DNA of 64,000 nt from an uncultured Halieaceae bacterium (GCA_963976655.1 CAXBLB010000010.1:32725-96724); one strand, 5' to 3'; positions 42,285 to 49,809 are shown, counted from the first letter of the stretch. Notes: generated by a model not told the origin, from the sequence alone. Made by a program: numbers and translations.

Positions 42285-43070
42285 TCAAGCCTCTCCCGTT
42301 AGACGCATCTGCAGACGATTCATGCCACTCACCCAGCGGTCGTAATCGGTTGCCTTGCGCTGCATATAATCCCTGACCTGCGGGTGCGTGAGGATGAGAA
42401 AGGCGTCGCGCTCGAGATGTTCCAGCACGATATCGGCCACTTCATCCGGTTCGAGCATGCCATCGGTGCTCGCGGCCTGCGTGCCCGTGTCTTCGCTGTT
42501 GGCGGTCATGGCCGTGCGCACCGCCTGGGGACACAGCACGGAGACCTTGATACCCTTGTGCGCATAGGTCATGCAAAGCCACTCGGCAAAACCCACCGCG
42601 GCGTGCTTGGTAACGCCGTAGGCGGCGCCACCAATCTGGTTCAACAAGCCAGCGGCAGAGGCGGTATTGAGGAAATATCCGCCCCCCCGCTGAAGCATGC
42701 GCGGCACCAGATGACGCGCGGCGTAGACGTGTGCCATCACATTCACATCCCAGCAGAGCTGCCATTCGTGGTTTGCGGATTGCTCGCTCGCGCCCGCACC
42801 CACCCCTGCGTTGGAGCAGAAAAGGTCAATCGGGCCGTACTCGGCTTCCGTGCGTTCAATTACGCCTGCAACTTCCTCTTCCCGCGTTACATCGGCAGTC
42901 ATCGCGGTACATTTCTCGCCCAGGAGGGTAGCCGTCTCCTGTGCCGCCGCGGAGTTGATGTCGACGGCGACGACGGCTTTTGCGCCCGCCTGGCAAAACT
43001 TTGCAGCCAGAGCCCGCCCAATGCCTCCCCCCGCGCCAGTGACGACTACGATTTGGTTATCTGGCTGCAT
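42285..43070 (-). CDS. Short-chain dehydrogenase/reductase
   Basis: TGAGGGIG, SNAG, NTASAAG, YGVTK catalytic motif. Confidence 0.9.
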   Translation of the reverse strand: MQPDNQIVVVTGAGGGIGRALAAKFCQAGAKAVVAVDINSAAAQETATLLGEKCTAMTADVTREEEVAGVIERTEAEYGPIDLFCSNAGVGAGASEQSANHEWQLCWDVNVMAHVYAARHLVPRMLQRGGGYFLNTASAAGLLNQIGGAAYGVTKHAAVGFAEWLCMTYAHKGIKVSVLCPQAVRTAMTANSEDTGTQAASTDGMLEPDEVADIVLEHLERDAFLILTHPQVRDYMQRKATDYDRWVSGMNRLQMRLTGEA

Positions 43071-43159
43071 TGTCCGTCCCCTTTGAAATATCCGCGTTGA
43101 TGATTCAGTTGCTGAAGGTCTGGGGATGGTAGTCTTCGCAACGGATAAAGTCATCTGCC

Positions 43160-43191
43160 GGTATTTGTAGCGATCAATTGCGACAAATACC
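43160..43191. promoter_or_regulatory. 32-bp imperfect inverted repeat between the divergent SDR and egtB genes
   Basis: GGTATTTGTAGCGATC|AATTGCGACAAATACC; 13 of 16 positions symmetric, outer 9 bp perfect. Confidence 0.55.
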
Positions 43192-43404
43192 AGACAACCG
43201 CAAAGCAGGGCCCTCGGTCGCAAGGCCAGTCCAGGCGTTAGGCGGGGACTCGCGCTGGTGCGATTTGGGGATAGCTGCTATGCTCTTTCCCACAAGTGCA
43301 ATAGCAGGAACAGAGAGCCGGCACATGCAACGCACGGCAAAGCAGCAACCTCAGTTCCGGGGCGCACTGGTCCCAGCTTTCACCTGCAGCTAGTTTCATT
43401 CCAC

Positions 43405-44739
43405 ATGCCCGCCAACGCATCTCCACTCGTCTCGCCAGATTCCCTGATGTCACTAGCCAGCGACTACCAGGCGGTCAGAAAGCAGTCGCTCGAATTCTGT
43501 GAGCCGCTGGCAGTAGAAGATTTCGGCTTGCAGCGGGATGCGTTCGTGAGCCCGCCCAAATGGCACCTGGCGCATACCAGCTGGTTTTTCGAAACATTCC
43601 TGCTGCAACCTTTTCTGCCACAGTATCGCGCTCTCGACGAGCGTTACGAGTATCTGTTCAACTCCTATTACAACGCAGTGGGGGAACAGTTTCCACGCGC
43701 CAGCCGGGCGCTGCTGTCGCGACCAACGGTTGCCGAAGTGCGCGAGTATCGCGCGCACGTGGACCATCACATGGCGCGTCTGCTGGCACTGGAAAATCAC
43801 CCCGACTGGCAGCTGATAGGTCAGCGCACACTGCTGGGCATCCAGCATGAAAAGCAGCACCAGGAGCTTTTTTTCACGGACTTGAAGTACTCGCTGGAGA
43901 TGAACCCGCTGGCACCGGTTCTGTGGCCGGGGCAGGCGCTCTCGGCGGAGACATCTGCGCGGCCCCCTGCGGCCGGCTGGCGCCACTTTGAAGGCGGTCT
44001 GGTCGAAGTGGGTTACGCTGGAGACGGATTCTGTTTCGACAACGAACTACCGCGACACCGGTATTATCTGGAAGCTTTCAGCCTGGCTGACAGGCTTGTC
44101 ACCAACGGCGAGTATCTCGAATTCGTCCTCGCTGGTGGCTATCAGCACTCCGAGTGGTGGCTGTCCGACGGCTGGGCGGCCGTGCAGGAAATGCAGTGGA
44201 CAGCACCGCAGTACTGGCGTCGTCGCGACGGGGAGTTTCTCGAGTTCACACTCCACGGCCTCGAACCGCTGAACCCCGCGTTGCCGGTGTGCCATGTCAG
44301 CGCCTATGAAGCAGATGCCTACGCCCGCTGGGCAGGTGCACGGCTGCCTGCCGAGCAGGAGTGGGAGTGGGCGGCAACCCTGGCACGCTCGGGTTCGGTT
44401 CCTGAAACCCCAGCCGCCGGCGCGGCGCATTATCACCCCAGTGCTGCGCCAGACACGGGCAGTCTGCGACAGCTGTTCGGCGAGTGCTGGCAGTGGACAG
44501 CAAGCGCCTACGGCGCCTATCCGGGCTATCGGCCCGCCGCCGGCGCTATCGGCGAATACAATGGCAAGTTCATGAGCAATCAGCTGGTACTGCGCGGAGG
44601 CTCCTGTGTCACGCCGGCGGAGCACGCGCGAACCAGCTATCGCAACTTCTTTTATCCACGCGACCGCTGGCAGTTCAGCGGCATTCGCCTTGCGCGCTCA
44701 GACGAAGCGGCGCGTCCACAACCGGGATTTTCTAAATGA
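43405..44739 (+). CDS. egtB: Ergothioneine sulfoxide synthase EgtB
   Basis: DinB domain WHLAHTSWFFE and HEKQHQEL iron ligands, RASR (RxxR) motif, FGE-sulfatase domain, GEYNGKFM; coupled to egtD. Confidence 0.92.
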   Translation: MPANASPLVSPDSLMSLASDYQAVRKQSLEFCEPLAVEDFGLQRDAFVSPPKWHLAHTSWFFETFLLQPFLPQYRALDERYEYLFNSYYNAVGEQFPRASRALLSRPTVAEVREYRAHVDHHMARLLALENHPDWQLIGQRTLLGIQHEKQHQELFFTDLKYSLEMNPLAPVLWPGQALSAETSARPPAAGWRHFEGGLVEVGYAGDGFCFDNELPRHRYYLEAFSLADRLVTNGEYLEFVLAGGYQHSEWWLSDGWAAVQEMQWTAPQYWRRRDGEFLEFTLHGLEPLNPALPVCHVSAYEADAYARWAGARLPAEQEWEWAATLARSGSVPETPAAGAAHYHPSAAPDTGSLRQLFGECWQWTASAYGAYPGYRPAAGAIGEYNGKFMSNQLVLRGGSCVTPAEHARTSYRNFFYPRDRWQFSGIRLARSDEAARPQPGFSK

Positions 44740-45731
44740 CACAGGCGGCAACGAAGCATGCAAGCGTGAGGTTTATCGATCAGCACCCGGCGGTGACGGT
44801 AGGCACGCAGGAGATTCTGCAGGGGCTTCGCAAACCCCAGAAAGCATTGGAACCAAAGTGGTTTTACGATGAGAAGGGTTCCAGGCTGTTTGACCAGATT
44901 ACCCGCCTGCCGGAGTATTATCCCAGCCGTACCGAGCGCCAGATACTGCAGCATTACAGCAGCGAAATCGCTACGGCTTGTGGTGGCGGCTGTGTGTTGA
45001 TTGAACCCGGAGCGGGCAACTGTGCCAAGGTGCGTATCCTGCTGGATGACCTGCGCCCAGCGGTCTATGCACCCGTGGACATCTCTGCAGACTATCTGTG
45101 GAGCGCAGCGCGCGAGCTGGGCGGTGAATACCCGTGGCTCGATGTAGTCGCCGTGTGTGCCGACTTCAATTGCGACTGGTCGTTTGTAGAGCGCTTGCCG
45201 CCTGGCAAGCGGGTCATATTCTATCCTGGTTCCACCATTGGCAATCTCGAGCCCGCGGCCGCGGCCGTGTTCCTGCGGCGTGTGCGCGCAGTGCTCGGAG
45301 AGGGCGGCGGAGCGCTGGTGGGCGTCGATCTGCATAAATCCTCCACGCGCCTGAATGCCGCATACAACGACGCCGCCGGTATCACAGCAAAATTCAATCT
45401 GAACGTATTGCAACGTTTGAACGAGATCATGGGTGCAGACTTCGATGAATCCCGTTTCCGCCATCACGCCTTCTACAACGGCGCGCGACAACGCATTGAA
45501 ATGCATCTCGTGAGCAAGGGCAGACAGAGCGTGACGCTGGGCGGTGAGCGCATCGATTTCGACGATGGCGAGAGCATTCATACCGAAAATTCCTATAAAT
45601 ACACTGTAGAGGGCTTCGCCGAACTCGCCGCCGGCGCCGGGCTGAGCCTTGAGCGCACCTGGCTGGACGAGGAGGAACTTTTCAGTGTGCACTATCTGCG
45701 GGCCGGCAATGCGCCCACGGGTGCCTCCTGA
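44736..45731 (+). CDS. egtD: L-histidine N-alpha-trimethyltransferase EgtD
   Basis: PKWFYDEKGSRLFDQITRLPEYY, EPGAG, PGSTIGN, AYND..G.TA.FN, HTENSYKY. Confidence 0.93.
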   Translation: MTQAATKHASVRFIDQHPAVTVGTQEILQGLRKPQKALEPKWFYDEKGSRLFDQITRLPEYYPSRTERQILQHYSSEIATACGGGCVLIEPGAGNCAKVRILLDDLRPAVYAPVDISADYLWSAARELGGEYPWLDVVAVCADFNCDWSFVERLPPGKRVIFYPGSTIGNLEPAAAAVFLRRVRAVLGEGGGALVGVDLHKSSTRLNAAYNDAAGITAKFNLNVLQRLNEIMGADFDESRFRHHAFYNGARQRIEMHLVSKGRQSVTLGGERIDFDDGESIHTENSYKYTVEGFAELAAGAGLSLERTWLDEEELFSVHYLRAGNAPTGAS

Positions 45732-45754
45732 CGCCTCAGTCCAAGCCTGGCGTA

Positions 45755-46486
45755 TTGACGCTGCAGTCGGTGACGCGGCGCTACGCACGTGTCAACGCAC
45801 TGGACAATGTCAGCCTGGATTTTCCCGCTGACGCCATTACCGCGGTTATCGGACGCAGCGGTTGCGGCAAATCCACGTTGCTGAAAGTGTGTAACGGGCT
45901 GGAGAGCCCCGATGCGGGGATTGTCCGCGTGTATGGCGAACCACTGGACTACGGCTCGCTTGCCCTCACCAGGCGGCGCATGGGCTACGCGGTGCAGGGA
46001 GTGGGCCTGTTTCCGCACCTCACGGCACGCGGCAACATCATACTGCTGGCGCAACTGGAGGGCTGGTCCGCGCATGCCATCGACCAGCGGCTTGAGGAAC
46101 TGATCGCGCTCACGTGCCTGGAGGCGAGTGCACTGGACCGCTATCCGCACGAATTGAGTGGCGGACAGCAGCAGCGAGTGGGTCTTTGCCGCGCACTGCT
46201 GTTGCGTCCGGCGATTCTGCTGCTGGATGAGCCCTTCGCTGCGATCGACCCGCTGACCCGGCTGGAAATTCACGAACAACTTCTCGCGTTGCACAGCCTG
46301 GAGCCTACTACGGTCGTCCTCGTCACACACGATATGGCCGAGGCCCTGCGCCTCGCGACGAATATCGTGGTGATGGCGGGCGGTCGGATTGTCGAACAGT
46401 GCGACCGCGATAGCCTGCTTTCGCGCGGTGCGGCCACTCAGCCTGAGCATCTGTTGTTGTCGATGCTGGGGGCAGCAACGACGTGA
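45755..46486 (+). CDS. ABC transporter ATP-binding subunit, OpuBA/OsmV (quaternary amine) family
   Basis: GRSGCGKST, LSGGQQQRVG, LLDEPFAAID, VTHD; start uncertain (TTG 45755 or CTG 45728). Confidence 0.88.
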   Translation: MTLQSVTRRYARVNALDNVSLDFPADAITAVIGRSGCGKSTLLKVCNGLESPDAGIVRVYGEPLDYGSLALTRRRMGYAVQGVGLFPHLTARGNIILLAQLEGWSAHAIDQRLEELIALTCLEASALDRYPHELSGGQQQRVGLCRALLLRPAILLLDEPFAAIDPLTRLEIHEQLLALHSLEPTTVVLVTHDMAEALRLATNIVVMAGGRIVEQCDRDSLLSRGAATQPEHLLLSMLGAATT

Positions 46487-47985
46487 CGCTGAGGTGCCGC
46501 GCGTGGGCTGTCCTTATGCTGATGTTGCTCATGGCGGCACACAGTCTGGCGGCACGTAGCGATGGCGCAACACCGGTACGCATCGGCTCCAAGGCCTTCA
46601 GCGAGAGTCACATTCTTGCAGAGATTGCCGCGCAGCTTCTCGAAAGTCGCGGCATCGCCGTGGAGCGAAAACTCGGGCTCGGCGGTACGCTCATCGCCTT
46701 CGAGGCGCTGCGCGGTGGTTCCGTGGATCTCTACCCGGAATACTCGGGTACTCTGACGGAAACAGTATTGGGCGCACCCGGACTCTCGCGCGAAGCTCTG
46801 CAGGCAGCGTTGGCAGCCAGGGAGCTCGAGCTCGCGGTGTTCTTCGGCTTCGACAACAGCTACGCGATTGCGGTGCCCGAGCAGCTGGCCAAAGAACTCG
46901 ACATGCAATCGATCAGTGATCTCGCGGCGCATCCACAGTTGCGTTTGAAGTTTTCGCACGAGTTCCTCAATCGAGGCGACGGCTGGCCGGCGCTGCAGGC
47001 AGCCTACGGGCTGCCGCAACGGCCCGGTGGAATTGAGCATGCGCTTGCGTATCGGGCGCTCGCCAACGGCAGCCTGGACGCCACCGATGCCTACACAACC
47101 GATGGCGAGCTCGCGGCGCATGCACTGAGGCTGCTGCAGGATGATCGCGGCTTTTTTCCGGACTACAGTGCTGCCCTGCTGATCCGCAGGGATCTGCCGC
47201 AACGCGCTCGCGAGACGTTATCCGCCCTGGCGGGACGTATCGACGCCAGTACCATGCGCCAGTTAAACCGTCGGGTCGCCAGCGAGGGTGAAACACCGGC
47301 GCGAGTGGCCGCGGAGTTTCTCGCCGACACCGGTCTGGCCGCCAAGAGGCAACTGCACGTGCCGACGCTGGCCGAACGCATTCTGGGCTACACGGCCGTG
47401 CACCTGAAACTCACGGCTATGGCGCTGCTCCTGGCCTGCGCCCTCGGGATTCCGGTGGCGCTGGCGCTGGCGCCGAGGCCTCCCGTGGCGCGCGTATTCC
47501 TGTACGTGACCGGCCTCCTGCAAACCATTCCGGCGCTGGCATTGCTGGCCCTGTTGATTCCCCTGGTGGGACTGGGACAGGTACCCGCCGTTATTGCCCT
47601 GTTCCTGTACTCGCTGTTGCCAATCGTGCGCAATACCCTCACCGGCCTGTTCAACGTCGATCCGCTGCTCAAGCAGGTCGCGCGGGGTATGGGCCTGACG
47701 CGCCGTCAGCAATTGTTACGGGTCGAGTTGCCGCTAGCCTTGCCCACCATTCTCGCGGGCGTTAAAACCGCCGCTATTATCAGTATCGGTACCGCAACGC
47801 TGGCAGCATTTGTCGGCGCAGGCGGCCTGGGCGAGCCGATCATTACCGGTCTTACGCTGAACGACCATCGTCTGATTCTGGAAGGCGCGATACCTGCCGC
47901 ATGCCTGGCAATCGCCGTTGAACTGCTTTTCGAACTACTGGAGCGCGCCAGTGTGCCAGGCCATCTGCGCGGTGCCGGCCGGTAG
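46483..47985 (+). CDS. Fused substrate-binding protein and permease, OpuAC/OsmF betaine-type ABC family
   Basis: Signal peptide, IGSKAFSE, PEYSGT, FEFLNRGDG-like HEFLNRGDG, YTTDG; C-terminal TM domain with QTIPALAL and EAA-like VARGMG. Confidence 0.88.
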   Translation: MTLRCRAWAVLMLMLLMAAHSLAARSDGATPVRIGSKAFSESHILAEIAAQLLESRGIAVERKLGLGGTLIAFEALRGGSVDLYPEYSGTLTETVLGAPGLSREALQAALAARELELAVFFGFDNSYAIAVPEQLAKELDMQSISDLAAHPQLRLKFSHEFLNRGDGWPALQAAYGLPQRPGGIEHALAYRALANGSLDATDAYTTDGELAAHALRLLQDDRGFFPDYSAALLIRRDLPQRARETLSALAGRIDASTMRQLNRRVASEGETPARVAAEFLADTGLAAKRQLHVPTLAERILGYTAVHLKLTAMALLLACALGIPVALALAPRPPVARVFLYVTGLLQTIPALALLALLIPLVGLGQVPAVIALFLYSLLPIVRNTLTGLFNVDPLLKQVARGMGLTRRQQLLRVELPLALPTILAGVKTAAIISIGTATLAAFVGAGGLGEPIITGLTLNDHRLILEGAIPAACLAIAVELLFELLERASVPGHLRGAGR

Positions 47986-48774
47986 ATGAGATTTCTCGCA
48001 TTCCCCGGCGCCTCGGGTGCAGCGGGCGATGCGCTCGGCAATACGTGCCTGGTTGAACGCGTTCAGCGGCGTCCCCGGGCTGCGCCATCCTCCGCCGGGA
48101 CAACCATCTGCCGCACCTGGTCACTCGGGGAACGCAGCGCCGGAGTGCGCTGCTGGACTGCACAGGGAGAGGAAATTCAGTGCTGTGGACACGGCTTGCT
48201 GAGTTGCGCGGCATGCTGGATGCAGGAGTGGGGCAGCGAAGGCCACCTGATCATGGGGCGCTCGGAAATTCCGTGTCGGCAGGCGAATGGCCTCTACTGG
48301 CTGGGCTTTGCGCGAGTGCGCTGCAGGGGCTCTGAGCTGCCGGCCTGGGCGCTCTCGCAGTTCGGCGCTGAGCCCATGGCAGCCGCGCTGGCCGGCCCGG
48401 AAGATGGGTACCTGATTCTGCACTGGCCCGACAATTTCCAACTCAAGCGTCTGCGAGTGCCCACGGCCGCGGTGGGTGCGAGCACCCGGCGGGCGGTCAT
48501 AGTGACCTGCAGGGATACGGATGCGGCAACAGACACCATTCACCTGCGTTACTTTGCCCCCCAATACGGCATAGTGGAAGACTCGGCGACCGGTTCAGCC
48601 ATGCGCATACTCGCAGATTACTGGGCGCAAACCTGCGGGCTGGAGGGCCTGCATGGACGGCAGGATTCACCGCGTGGCGGCGAACTCTTCAGCCGCCTGG
48701 AAGGTGAAATTGCCTGGGTGGGCGGACGCATTCGTGACCTGGACGAAACGGATAACGGTGTACCAGATACATAA
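47986..48774 (+). CDS. Divergent PhzF/DapF-fold isomerase-like protein
   Basis: EIQCCGHG (compare LCGH), RYFAPQYGIVEDSATGSA (compare EDPATGSA); ATG directly follows the upstream TAG. Confidence 0.7.
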   Translation: MRFLAFPGASGAAGDALGNTCLVERVQRRPRAAPSSAGTTICRTWSLGERSAGVRCWTAQGEEIQCCGHGLLSCAACWMQEWGSEGHLIMGRSEIPCRQANGLYWLGFARVRCRGSELPAWALSQFGAEPMAAALAGPEDGYLILHWPDNFQLKRLRVPTAAVGASTRRAVIVTCRDTDAATDTIHLRYFAPQYGIVEDSATGSAMRILADYWAQTCGLEGLHGRQDSPRGGELFSRLEGEIAWVGGRIRDLDETDNGVPDT

Positions 48775-48861
48775 TGGCATACATTATGTCAGTATAGTAT
48801 GCTCGCAGGGCAGCAGGTTTTTCACTGACAACAAACACGCATTCGTGAGCGAGGAAAGGAT

Positions 48862-49809
48862 TTGACTCAGCCCCCCATTCAGAATCGAATCACCGCCATG
48901 ACAGGCACGGACTATCCTATCGTGCAGGCTCCGATGGGTTGGATCGCGCGGGCGCAGCTGGCCTCTGCGGTGAGTAACGCAGGCGGCCTTGGCATCATAG
49001 AAACCTCGTCTGGCGAACTGGACAATATCAAGGCCGAAGTGGCCAAGATGCGCTCGCTCACGGACAGGCCGTTTGGTATGAACGTGGCGCTGTCGTTTGT
49101 CAGAGGTACCGATATTATTGATTTCGTGATTGACCAGGGCATACGCTTTGTCACCACCTCATCGGGCAGCCCGAGCGTGTGTACTGAAGCCTTTCAACAG
49201 GCAGGCATTACCGTATTCCATGTGGTGCCTACCCTGGAACTCGCCATGAAGGCTATCGATGCTGGCGTCGACGGCCTGGTGGTAGAAGGCGGGGAGGGCG
49301 GCGGCTTCAAGAATCCCAGTCCGGTCGCCACGATGGTGCTGTTGCCGCTCATCTGTTCACGGGTTGATGTGCCCGTTATCGCAGCGGGTGGTATCTGCGA
49401 CGGCGTCTCCATGGCGGCGGCATTCGCCATGGGGGCAGAAGGTGTACAGATGGGAACCCGCATGTTGAGCTGTGCCGAATCGCCCGTGCACAACAACTGG
49501 AAGCAGGCAGTGCTGGATGCCCGCGCCACGGATACGGTTTTCCTCAACAAGGCCTCGCGTCCCGCGCTGAGGGCACTGCGCACAGAACGCACTGCGGCGC
49601 TGGAACCGCTGGGCAGCTTCGACCTGATGGAGCATATGACGGATGTACTGGACCTGTATTTCGGTGGCGACATGGAAGCCGCGATTCCTTTGGCGGGGGA
49701 GGTCTGTGGCCGCATAGACAGCGTCGAGAGCGCCGCTTCCATTATCGACAGCACAATGCTCGGGTTTCGACAAACCATCGCCGAGCAGGCCGCTCGCTAC
49801 GCGGTCTAG
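48862..49809 (+). CDS. Nitronate monooxygenase / FabK-like flavin oxidoreductase
   Basis: PIVQAPMG, VEGGEGGG, PVIAAGGICDG, GVQMGTR. Confidence 0.85.
   Translation: MTQPPIQNRITAMTGTDYPIVQAPMGWIARAQLASAVSNAGGLGIIETSSGELDNIKAEVAKMRSLTDRPFGMNVALSFVRGTDIIDFVIDQGIRFVTTSSGSPSVCTEAFQQAGITVFHVVPTLELAMKAIDAGVDGLVVEGGEGGGFKNPSPVATMVLLPLICSRVDVPVIAAGGICDGVSMAAAFAMGAEGVQMGTRMLSCAESPVHNNWKQAVLDARATDTVFLNKASRPALRALRTERTAALEPLGSFDLMEHMTDVLDLYFGGDMEAAIPLAGEVCGRIDSVESAASIIDSTMLGFRQTIAEQAARYAV

Follow-up and report, generated by a model that had tools for sequence, protein, structure and literature searches.

The locus examined here lies within a 64,000-nucleotide stretch of DNA from an uncultured Halieaceae bacterium (GCA_963976655.1 CAXBLB010000010.1:32725-96724; hereafter the window, with positions counted from its first letter), and it raises the question of what a betaine-type ATP-binding cassette (ABC) transporter does inside an operon for ergothioneine synthesis. 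Five open reading frames occupy positions 43405-48774 on the + strand, namely egtB, egtD, a gene for an ABC ATPase, a gene for a fusion of a binding domain to a permease, and a PhzF-like gene. Our answer is that the whole unit would be a module for ergothioneine that brings its own uptake system. We put at roughly 55% the probability that the cargo of the ABC system is a histidine betaine, because the transporter is co-inherited with egtB, the linkage has survived rearrangement of the cluster, the pairing recurs across phyla, and an unrelated major facilitator superfamily (MFS) carrier forms an exclusive alternative. The five genes, with the parts of the fusion protein, are as follows.

43405-44739, + strand: egtB, predicted type II (cysteine-dependent) hercynine sulfoxide synthase; TIGR03440 548 bits (cut-off 360); DinB_2 and FGE-sulfatase domains.
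44736-45731, + strand: egtD, predicted L-histidine N-alpha-trimethyltransferase, yielding hercynine; TIGR03438 396 bits (cut-off 290.9); PF10017 366 bits.
45755-46486, + strand: ABC ATPase, 243 amino acids; nucleotide-binding domain only, with PF00005 (ABC_tran) as the sole specific Pfam domain.
46483-47985, + strand: fusion protein, 500 amino acids; periplasmic betaine-type binding domain plus five-helix permease.
46483-46551, + strand: fusion protein, signal or anchor peptide, residues 1-23.
46573-47325, + strand: fusion protein, OpuAC domain, residues 31-281.
47446-47952, + strand: fusion protein, permease domain BPD_transp_1, residues 322-490.
47986-48774, + strand: PhzF-like protein, 262 amino acids; PF02567 51 bits (cut-off 27); egtB-linked subfamily.

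The genes are tightly packed, and the junctions on which the first-pass annotation had based its five-gene unit were all read in the sequence: egtB and egtD overlap in an ATGA (44736-44739), the ATPase and fusion genes overlap in a GTGA (46483-46486), and the TAG stop of the fusion gene (47983-47985) directly abuts the ATG of the PhzF-like gene (47986). A gap of 23 nucleotides separates the egtD stop from the TTG start of the ATPase gene (45755), and egtB has a second possible in-frame start, an ATG at 43447. A promoter consensus scan found no sigma-70-like site within the unit.

By family membership, EgtD would trimethylate histidine with S-adenosylmethionine (SAM) to give hercynine, which the type II EgtB would join with free cysteine and O2 to hercynyl-cysteine sulfoxide. 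The ATPase and the fusion protein would import a trimethylammonium carboxylate, with the binding domain tethered in the periplasm ahead of the permease. Gene context suggests that this cargo is hercynine, ergothioneine or both; the cell would take it back after leakage or oxidation, or gather it from sea water, and its import would spare a costly synthesis that takes three SAM per molecule.

The transporter itself is predicted to be a type-I ABC importer of the OpuAC (AfProX/OpuBC/EgtU) binding-protein group, presumably assembled from two ATPase and two fusion subunits. A hydropathy scan placed five transmembrane segments after the binding domain, a layout consistent with a permease core of five helices whose outward-facing N-terminus carries a periplasmic binding domain. 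The two-gene composition, i.e., an ATPase plus a permease/OpuAC fusion, is shared with the characterised EgtU/EgtUV importers (S. pneumoniae SPD_1642-1643, L. monocytogenes BilE, and H. pylori EgtUV). The domain order is reversed, as the first-pass annotation had pointed out: the binding domain is N-terminal here and is followed by five helices, whereas in EgtUBC six transmembrane helices (1-230) precede the binding domain (PMC9732360). The best NCBIfam match of the ATPase is the ProV-subfamily model TIGR01186, below its cut-off, and no CBS or other regulatory C-terminal domain was detected in it with Pfam or NCBIfam.

Linkage was then counted in a census of 151 Halieaceae genomes, all of them species representatives with a completeness of 90% or more. 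EgtB was found in 105 of them, and an orthologue of the fusion permease was present in 53 of these 105 genomes versus none of the 46 without EgtB (Fisher p=2e-11). The permease orthologue lay at most 6 kb from egtB in 50 of the 53, the remaining three being on different contigs, in assemblies that are fragmented. With the permease gene directly ahead of egtB, the gap was 12-27 nucleotides. The commonest gene order was ATPase-permease-PhzF-egtB-egtD, and a second was ATPase-permease-egtB-egtD. The order in the window, egtB-egtD-ATPase-permease-PhzF, is a circular permutation of the commonest one and was found in the small clade to which the window belongs; one further genus had an egtBD-first order lacking PhzF. 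When the add-on genes were mapped as labels on an EgtB tree of 102 loci, at least 25 gains or losses were required, and the association has therefore been maintained or rebuilt many times. The first-pass annotation had called for such a count, with the possibility that the linkage was unique to this genome; the count disproved that, as the pairing is family-wide and extends to other phyla.

The same numbers bear on a different reading of the operon, namely that the system serves for ordinary osmoprotectant import (of glycine betaine, proline betaine or dimethylsulfoniopropionate), shares an operon with egtBD through a common stress and carries no histidine betaines. A general osmolyte importer should be useful without EgtB, yet none of the 46 EgtB-negative Halieaceae genomes carries this transporter. 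The genome of the window already has three BCCT carriers, which are available for ordinary betaines, and the ATPase is without the CBS osmosensing tail.

A 4.9-kb contig labelled Bacteroidia (L139; JBLFXU010000271.1) was also encountered. It has a permease-PhzF-EgtB-EgtD cluster of the Halieaceae type, falls inside the Halieaceae on the EgtB tree, and is probably mis-binned.

Beyond the Halieaceae, transporters that belong to this fused-transporter clade adjoin a bona fide EgtD in a KSB1 genome (377 bits) and in a Gemmatimonadales genome (332 bits), both EgtB and EgtD in a Longimicrobiales genome, and an EgtD-like fusion below the cut-off in a Planctomycetota genome. Recurrence of the EgtD/EgtB pairing in other phyla again argues against the osmoprotectant reading. 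Two of these loci had features of their own. The Planctomycetota fusion (L048:3426-5126) is a 566-amino-acid protein that combines a class-I methyltransferase with an EgtD-like Methyltransf_33 domain (188 bits, below the EgtD cut-off), and it may make a different betaine. In KSB1, a gene for a DisA-type diadenylate cyclase (DAC; L014:3332-3937) lies just upstream of egtD-ATPase-permease; cyclic di-AMP controls osmolyte uptake in other bacteria, and the adjacency may be a coincidence.

Within the Halieaceae, a further line of evidence came from clusters with another carrier. An uncharacterised MFS_1 carrier, unrelated to the ABC system, followed egtD in 16 of the 105 EgtB-positive genomes (e.g., G096:C16:170168-171418; seen also at locus L090:10113-11393), and no genome had both the MFS and the ABC system at the same cluster, versus ~7.6 expected by chance (p=1.1e-5). 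Sharing of one slot by two unrelated carriers is what one would expect if both were alternative answers to a single transport need of the pathway, and this mutual exclusion counts against an osmoprotectant importer. The best NCBIfam match of the MFS carrier is the SfMCT lactate carrier, and it is weak. We regard the MFS protein as a candidate carrier of hercynine or ergothioneine, in either direction, which would probably do in those clusters the same job as the ABC system in the others. Some of these clusters showed additional peculiarities. A gene for a 93-amino-acid DUF427 protein (PF04248) lies, in divergent orientation, upstream of PhzF-EgtB-MFS clusters (L083:6500-6781, also L084-L086), and in one census genome (G003:C9:32945-34201) egtB has three in-frame stops, likely making it a pseudogene, with the MFS gene still following.

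In the opposite proposal, the system would be the secretion pump of a producer and export ergothioneine. Producers such as mycobacteria do release ergothioneine, an exporter is not known from any organism (PMC12689799), and the MFS alternative could run either way. However, binding-domain-dependent ABC systems with BPD_transp_1 are importers, and a tethered periplasmic domain has no role in export; we find this proposal hardly credible.

Specificity might also be read from the binding pocket, and the published contacts (PMC9732360; PMC12922746) were mapped onto an alignment with the binding domain. Over its whole length, and among solved structures, the domain scored highest with S. pneumoniae EgtUC (SpEgtUC; 156 bits), followed by choline-binder-derived sensors (147 bits) and the glycine/proline betaine-binding ProX of Archaeoglobus fulgidus (AfProX; PDB 1sw1/1sw2; 136 bits), in keeping with the kinship to the Opu and EgtU proteins on which the first-pass annotation had built. 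A trimethylammonium cage is provided by Tyr87, Tyr127, Tyr204, Tyr228 and Asn125; the carboxylate clamp Lys37/Thr90/Arg164 is kept, and so is the triad Glu160/Arg164/Asp166. EgtU shares the cage of aromatic residues, the Lys/Thr/Arg clamp and the Glu at its position 375. Cage and clamp, which are conserved in 106 homologues of the fused-transporter clade, suggest that the ligand is an alpha-N-trimethyl amino acid; the equivalents of cage, clamp and Glu375 are also found in glycine-betaine binders, and are thus not discriminating.

Several observations weigh against a histidine-betaine cargo or against a role for the PhzF-like gene, and the most direct of them lie in this pocket. Phe39 stands at the position of the invariant Gly244 of EgtU, where the glycine leaves room for a water chain around the thioimidazole (PMC9732360), and Tyr87/Phe123 replace EgtU Phe293/Tyr337 (the 'Y-to-F switch'); both are the AfProX state. 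SpEgtUC Ile243 and Thr274, which contact the thione, correspond to Ala38 and Gly68 here. Substitutions in SpEgtUC lower the ergothioneine affinity ~100-fold for G244F, ~10-fold for F293Y and ~30-fold for I243A (PMC9732360; PMC12922746). The N-terminal half of the domain scores 65 bits with AfProX and 57 bits with EgtUC, and the pocket departs from AfProX only at Pro->Ala38 and Asp->Asn125. The OpuAC domain of the fusion is the only one in the genome, and with a single Opu-type ABC system redundancy gives no argument against a general betaine role. As to distribution, the co-inheritance may in part mean that the cluster is gained or lost as one block, and 39 EgtB-positive genomes have neither transporter, which makes the transporter accessory. 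The PhzF-like gene is likewise accessory rather than indispensable, being absent from 58 of the 105 EgtB-positive genomes, and statistically it occurs independently of the ABC system (odds ratio 0.94).

It is to be noted that the thione-contact positions are not equally sensitive, as T274G left the ergothioneine affinity of SpEgtUC unchanged (PMC9732360; PMC12922746). Moreover, H. pylori EgtUC has Pro/Gly at 243/274 and yet transports ergothioneine, with a Ka of 5e5 M-1 (PMC12922746); a small residue plus Gly at these two positions is a feature that it shares with the domain studied here.

The osmoprotectant reading draws strength from the same residues, since the pocket is nearly that of AfProX (four-Tyr cage, Phe at the Gly244 site, same clamp; PMC9732360), and also from the lack of any other OpuAC-type system in the genome and from close Burkholderiales homologues that stand outside any egt context. 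The pocket signature, KAF-GT-Y-T-F-N-Y-E-R-D-Y-Y, contains the traits that characterise AfProX, namely the four-Tyr cage, a Phe following the Lys-x pair, and the Lys/Thr/Arg clamp, and the likeness extends to the surrounding motifs GSKPF/GSKAF, GLGGT, YxEYxGT and GFxDxY/GFDNSY (AfProX and present domain, respectively, where two are given). AfProX, however, is a stand-alone osmoprotectant binding protein, whereas the present domain is fused to a permease and co-inherited with egtB. Comparison within the clade revealed a further difference: egt-linked members have K-[T/A/S/I/P]-F plus Gly, while the unlinked Burkholderiales members have K-R-F plus Asn. This split falls exactly at the two positions of the distal pocket that contact the thione sulfur in SpEgtUC, where the egt-linked proteins carry small residues, and it speaks against the osmoprotectant reading. 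On balance, we consider an ordinary osmoprotectant importer unlikely, though a serious contender.

The neighbors of the unlinked Burkholderiales homologues, with open reading frames picked by third-position guanine-plus-cytosine (GC) content, were a two-component system, an MFS carrier, a peptidase M3, a molybdopterin oxidoreductase and a transhydrogenase. This gene context was considered as a clue to the substrate and was discarded, as the neighbors are unrelated.

Judged by its sequence, the domain would bind an N-trimethyl carboxylate in the manner of AfProX, and micromolar binding of histidine betaines is neither excluded nor predicted. Since the pocket is without the specificity residues of EgtU, the case for salvage of ergothioneine or hercynine comes from the gene context. 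The combined make-and-salvage system that the first-pass annotation had proposed is partly supported: the link to the egt genes is strengthened, the pocket is not EgtU-like, and the cargo is argued from the genomic neighborhood.

A narrower form of the histidine-betaine reading would restrict the cargo to hercynine, such that ergothioneine spent as an antioxidant breaks down to hercynine, and the hercynine is imported again for EgtB to sulfurise anew. The pocket, devoid of the sulfur-recognition features of EgtU, would suit this cargo, as would a transporter that never occurs without EgtB in the Halieaceae census and pairs with EgtD alone in other phyla; hercynine is also a marker of ergothioneine oxidation (PMC12922746). 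The PhzF-EgtB-MFS clusters that have no egtD were considered as proof of hercynine import, and this argument was rejected, because they belong to a genome with egtD on another contig, which need not depend on imported hercynine. We judge a hercynine-only cargo to be rather improbable.

EgtB aligned over its full length with Chloracidobacterium thermophilum EgtB (6o6l/6qki) at 452 bits, versus 140 bits with Mycobacterium EgtB (4x8b). The Tyr pair of the FNSYY motif, which we take to be catalytic in Chloracidobacterium EgtB, is kept in the alignment; nothing notable differs between the two proteins, and EgtB here looks an ordinary member. The Chloracidobacterium protein is a structurally characterised type II enzyme that joins hercynine directly to L-cysteine (PMC13645936). 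EgtB of the window is likewise classed as a cysteine-using type II sulfoxide synthase, with its activity predicted, and neither EgtA nor EgtC is expected because a type II enzyme uses free cysteine. In the source assembly, which is 99.96% complete, no EgtC was indeed found (best score 25 bits), and no EgtE either, the best TIGR04343 match being 90 bits versus a cut-off of 400. EgtE is the hercynyl-cysteine sulfoxide lyase of mycobacteria, dependent on pyridoxal 5'-phosphate (PLP). At E<=1e-40 it was found in none of the 151 Halieaceae genomes, a search in which the control genomes gave no match either and which therefore had no positive control. With EgtE found in none of the 151 genomes, the C-S lyase step has no assigned gene across the family. 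The first-pass annotation had noted that egtC and egtE are missing from the window and had left the late steps unexplained; the absence holds for the whole genome, the egtC part is accounted for by the type II EgtB, and the EgtE step is the one left without an assigned gene.

This vacancy makes the PhzF-like protein an obvious candidate for the unexplained late step. In the proposed scheme, the PhzF-fold protein would cleave the C-S bond of the sulfoxide cysteine without PLP, i.e., do the job of mycobacterial EgtE; otherwise, an unspecific PLP beta-lyase would take the step, as it must in the 58 EgtB-positive genomes that have no PhzF-like protein. The chemistry of the PhzF/DapF fold is abstraction of C-alpha protons or a concerted shift of hydrogens, and trans-3-hydroxyproline dehydratase, a relative with the DapF fold, already performs beta-elimination; a role as PLP-independent lyase is plausible on account of this chemistry and this precedent. 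That the protein carries out or assists the late step is, in our estimate, possible but tentative. More doubtful is the fuller proposition that it is a new dedicated lyase (most likely PLP-independent) replacing EgtE, that PhzF-EgtB-EgtD forms a complete three-gene pathway, and that the ABC and MFS systems represent, as interchangeable partners, a second, independently evolved class of hercynine/ergothioneine carrier in producers.

The evidence for a specific association is mainly positional. A profile of the PhzF-like subfamily fetched 80 loci, and egtB lay immediately downstream in 79 of them, the single exception being without the subfamily signature. In the census, the subfamily was present in 47 genomes and stood beside egtB in all 47; the scores were bimodal, with at least 158 bits for the subfamily and at most 110 bits for generic paralogues. 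One such generic PhzF paralogue occurs in the genome of the window itself (C12:126249-126830), with NLAETAF, LCGHATLA and EDPVTGSA intact and no egt gene nearby. The homologues of the PhzF-like protein all belong to PF02567, and come mostly from Halieaceae and other Cellvibrionales.

The structural comparison was consistent with the family assignment and also showed where the protein departs from it. An AlphaFold model built from 21 sequences had a pLDDT of 91.9, and its best Foldseek match was 1s7j (TM-score 0.77, E=5e-19), with a DapF-like fold. The matches came in the order of 1s7j and 4dun (both of unknown function), PhzF and YddE, and then epimerases and racemases of the DapF type, including the O-ureidoserine and histidine racemases. 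In common with PhzF (trans-2,3-dihydro-3-hydroxyanthranilate isomerase), 1s7j, 4dun and YddE, the protein has the two-domain DapF-like fold and the CGH and ED..TGS motifs. In contrast to PhzF, the catalytic Glu of the SET motif (Glu45) is missing, with no acidic residue aligned, and there are extra conserved Cys and Trp residues; the 21 aligned members share GNxC, T-x-C-x-x-W at the SET site, an extra Cys (C56), and CC-GHG. Among ~96 relatives of the PhzF-like protein, none had the SET motif, and the CxxW motif was not universal. The phenazine (phz) context of PhzF is also replaced here by a place beside egtB. As regards EgtE, whose step has no assigned gene here, the PhzF-like protein is of an unrelated fold and has no PLP motif.

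Complementarity with EgtE, in the sense that PhzF-less genomes would use EgtE instead, was considered and dropped: with EgtE in none of the 151 genomes, the distribution neither supports nor disproves a lyase role. Four clusters that have neither add-on showed no PLP enzyme at their flanks. Separately, a canonical PhzF/YddE-type gene with an intact SET motif (PF02567, 209 bits) directly follows egtB-egtD in all four sampled species of another Halieaceae genus (L172:8712-9545, L186, L187 and L188); this could be a second link of the PhzF family to egt genes or, alternatively, genus-level synteny.

The two associations can be set against what has been published. OCTN1 and EgtU were the only known ergothioneine uptake systems, and no exporter had been identified, as of a 2025 paper (PMC12689799). 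EgtU was characterised as an uptake route in bacteria unable to make ergothioneine, and its homologues are nearly all from Firmicutes (PMC9732360). In contrast, across much of a marine family the producers hold a different betaine-type importer within the biosynthetic operon. Within the searchable papers, we found no published account of an importer embedded in egt operons, and a full-text literature search found no paper linking PhzF with ergothioneine. Neither the egtB-transporter nor the egtB-PhzF pairing was found in that literature. The PhzF-fold partner is the most novel lead; it offers a concrete candidate for the C-S lyase step of a widespread pathway that consists of egtBD only.

Judged by its pocket, the binding domain would be annotated as a glycine-betaine binder. 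If the cargo is hercynine or ergothioneine, annotation by pocket residues alone misleads for this group, and the recognition of histidine betaines would have evolved at least twice. Producers would then recycle an expensive antioxidant, with a bearing on the fluxes of ergothioneine and hercynine in sea water. Cultured strains exist for each cluster type, e.g., Congregibacter brevis, C. variabilis, Luminiphilus syltensis NOR5-1B, Haliea salexigens and Parahalioglobus pacificus.

Two further elements were noted at the downstream end of the unit.

48769-48789, + strand: AT-rich perfect 8-bp inverted repeat ACATAATG N5 CATTATGT, spanning the stop codon of the PhzF-like gene, in surroundings of 60% GC.
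48800-48822, + strand: terminator-like hairpin plus T-run, from a consensus scan only.

The inverted repeat could be a protein-binding site or part of a terminator, and the predicted hairpin likely marks the 3' end of the five-gene unit. Rfam gave no riboswitch or known RNA element in 42900-49100. A 15-nucleotide imperfect palindrome, GGTATTTGTAGCGAT / ATTGCGACAAATACC, at 43160-43191, between egtB and the neighboring gene for a short-chain dehydrogenase/reductase (SDR), was considered and set aside: the three closest relatives do not keep it as a palindrome, and it may be part of the SDR coding sequence. Upstream, on the opposite strand, the unit is preceded by this SDR gene and a glutathione S-transferase (GST)-like gene, and downstream it is followed by a nitronate monooxygenase-like gene and a DUF2855 gene. 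These flanking genes are common only to the nearest relatives, the loci closest to the window being those of Halioglobus-like Halieaceae.

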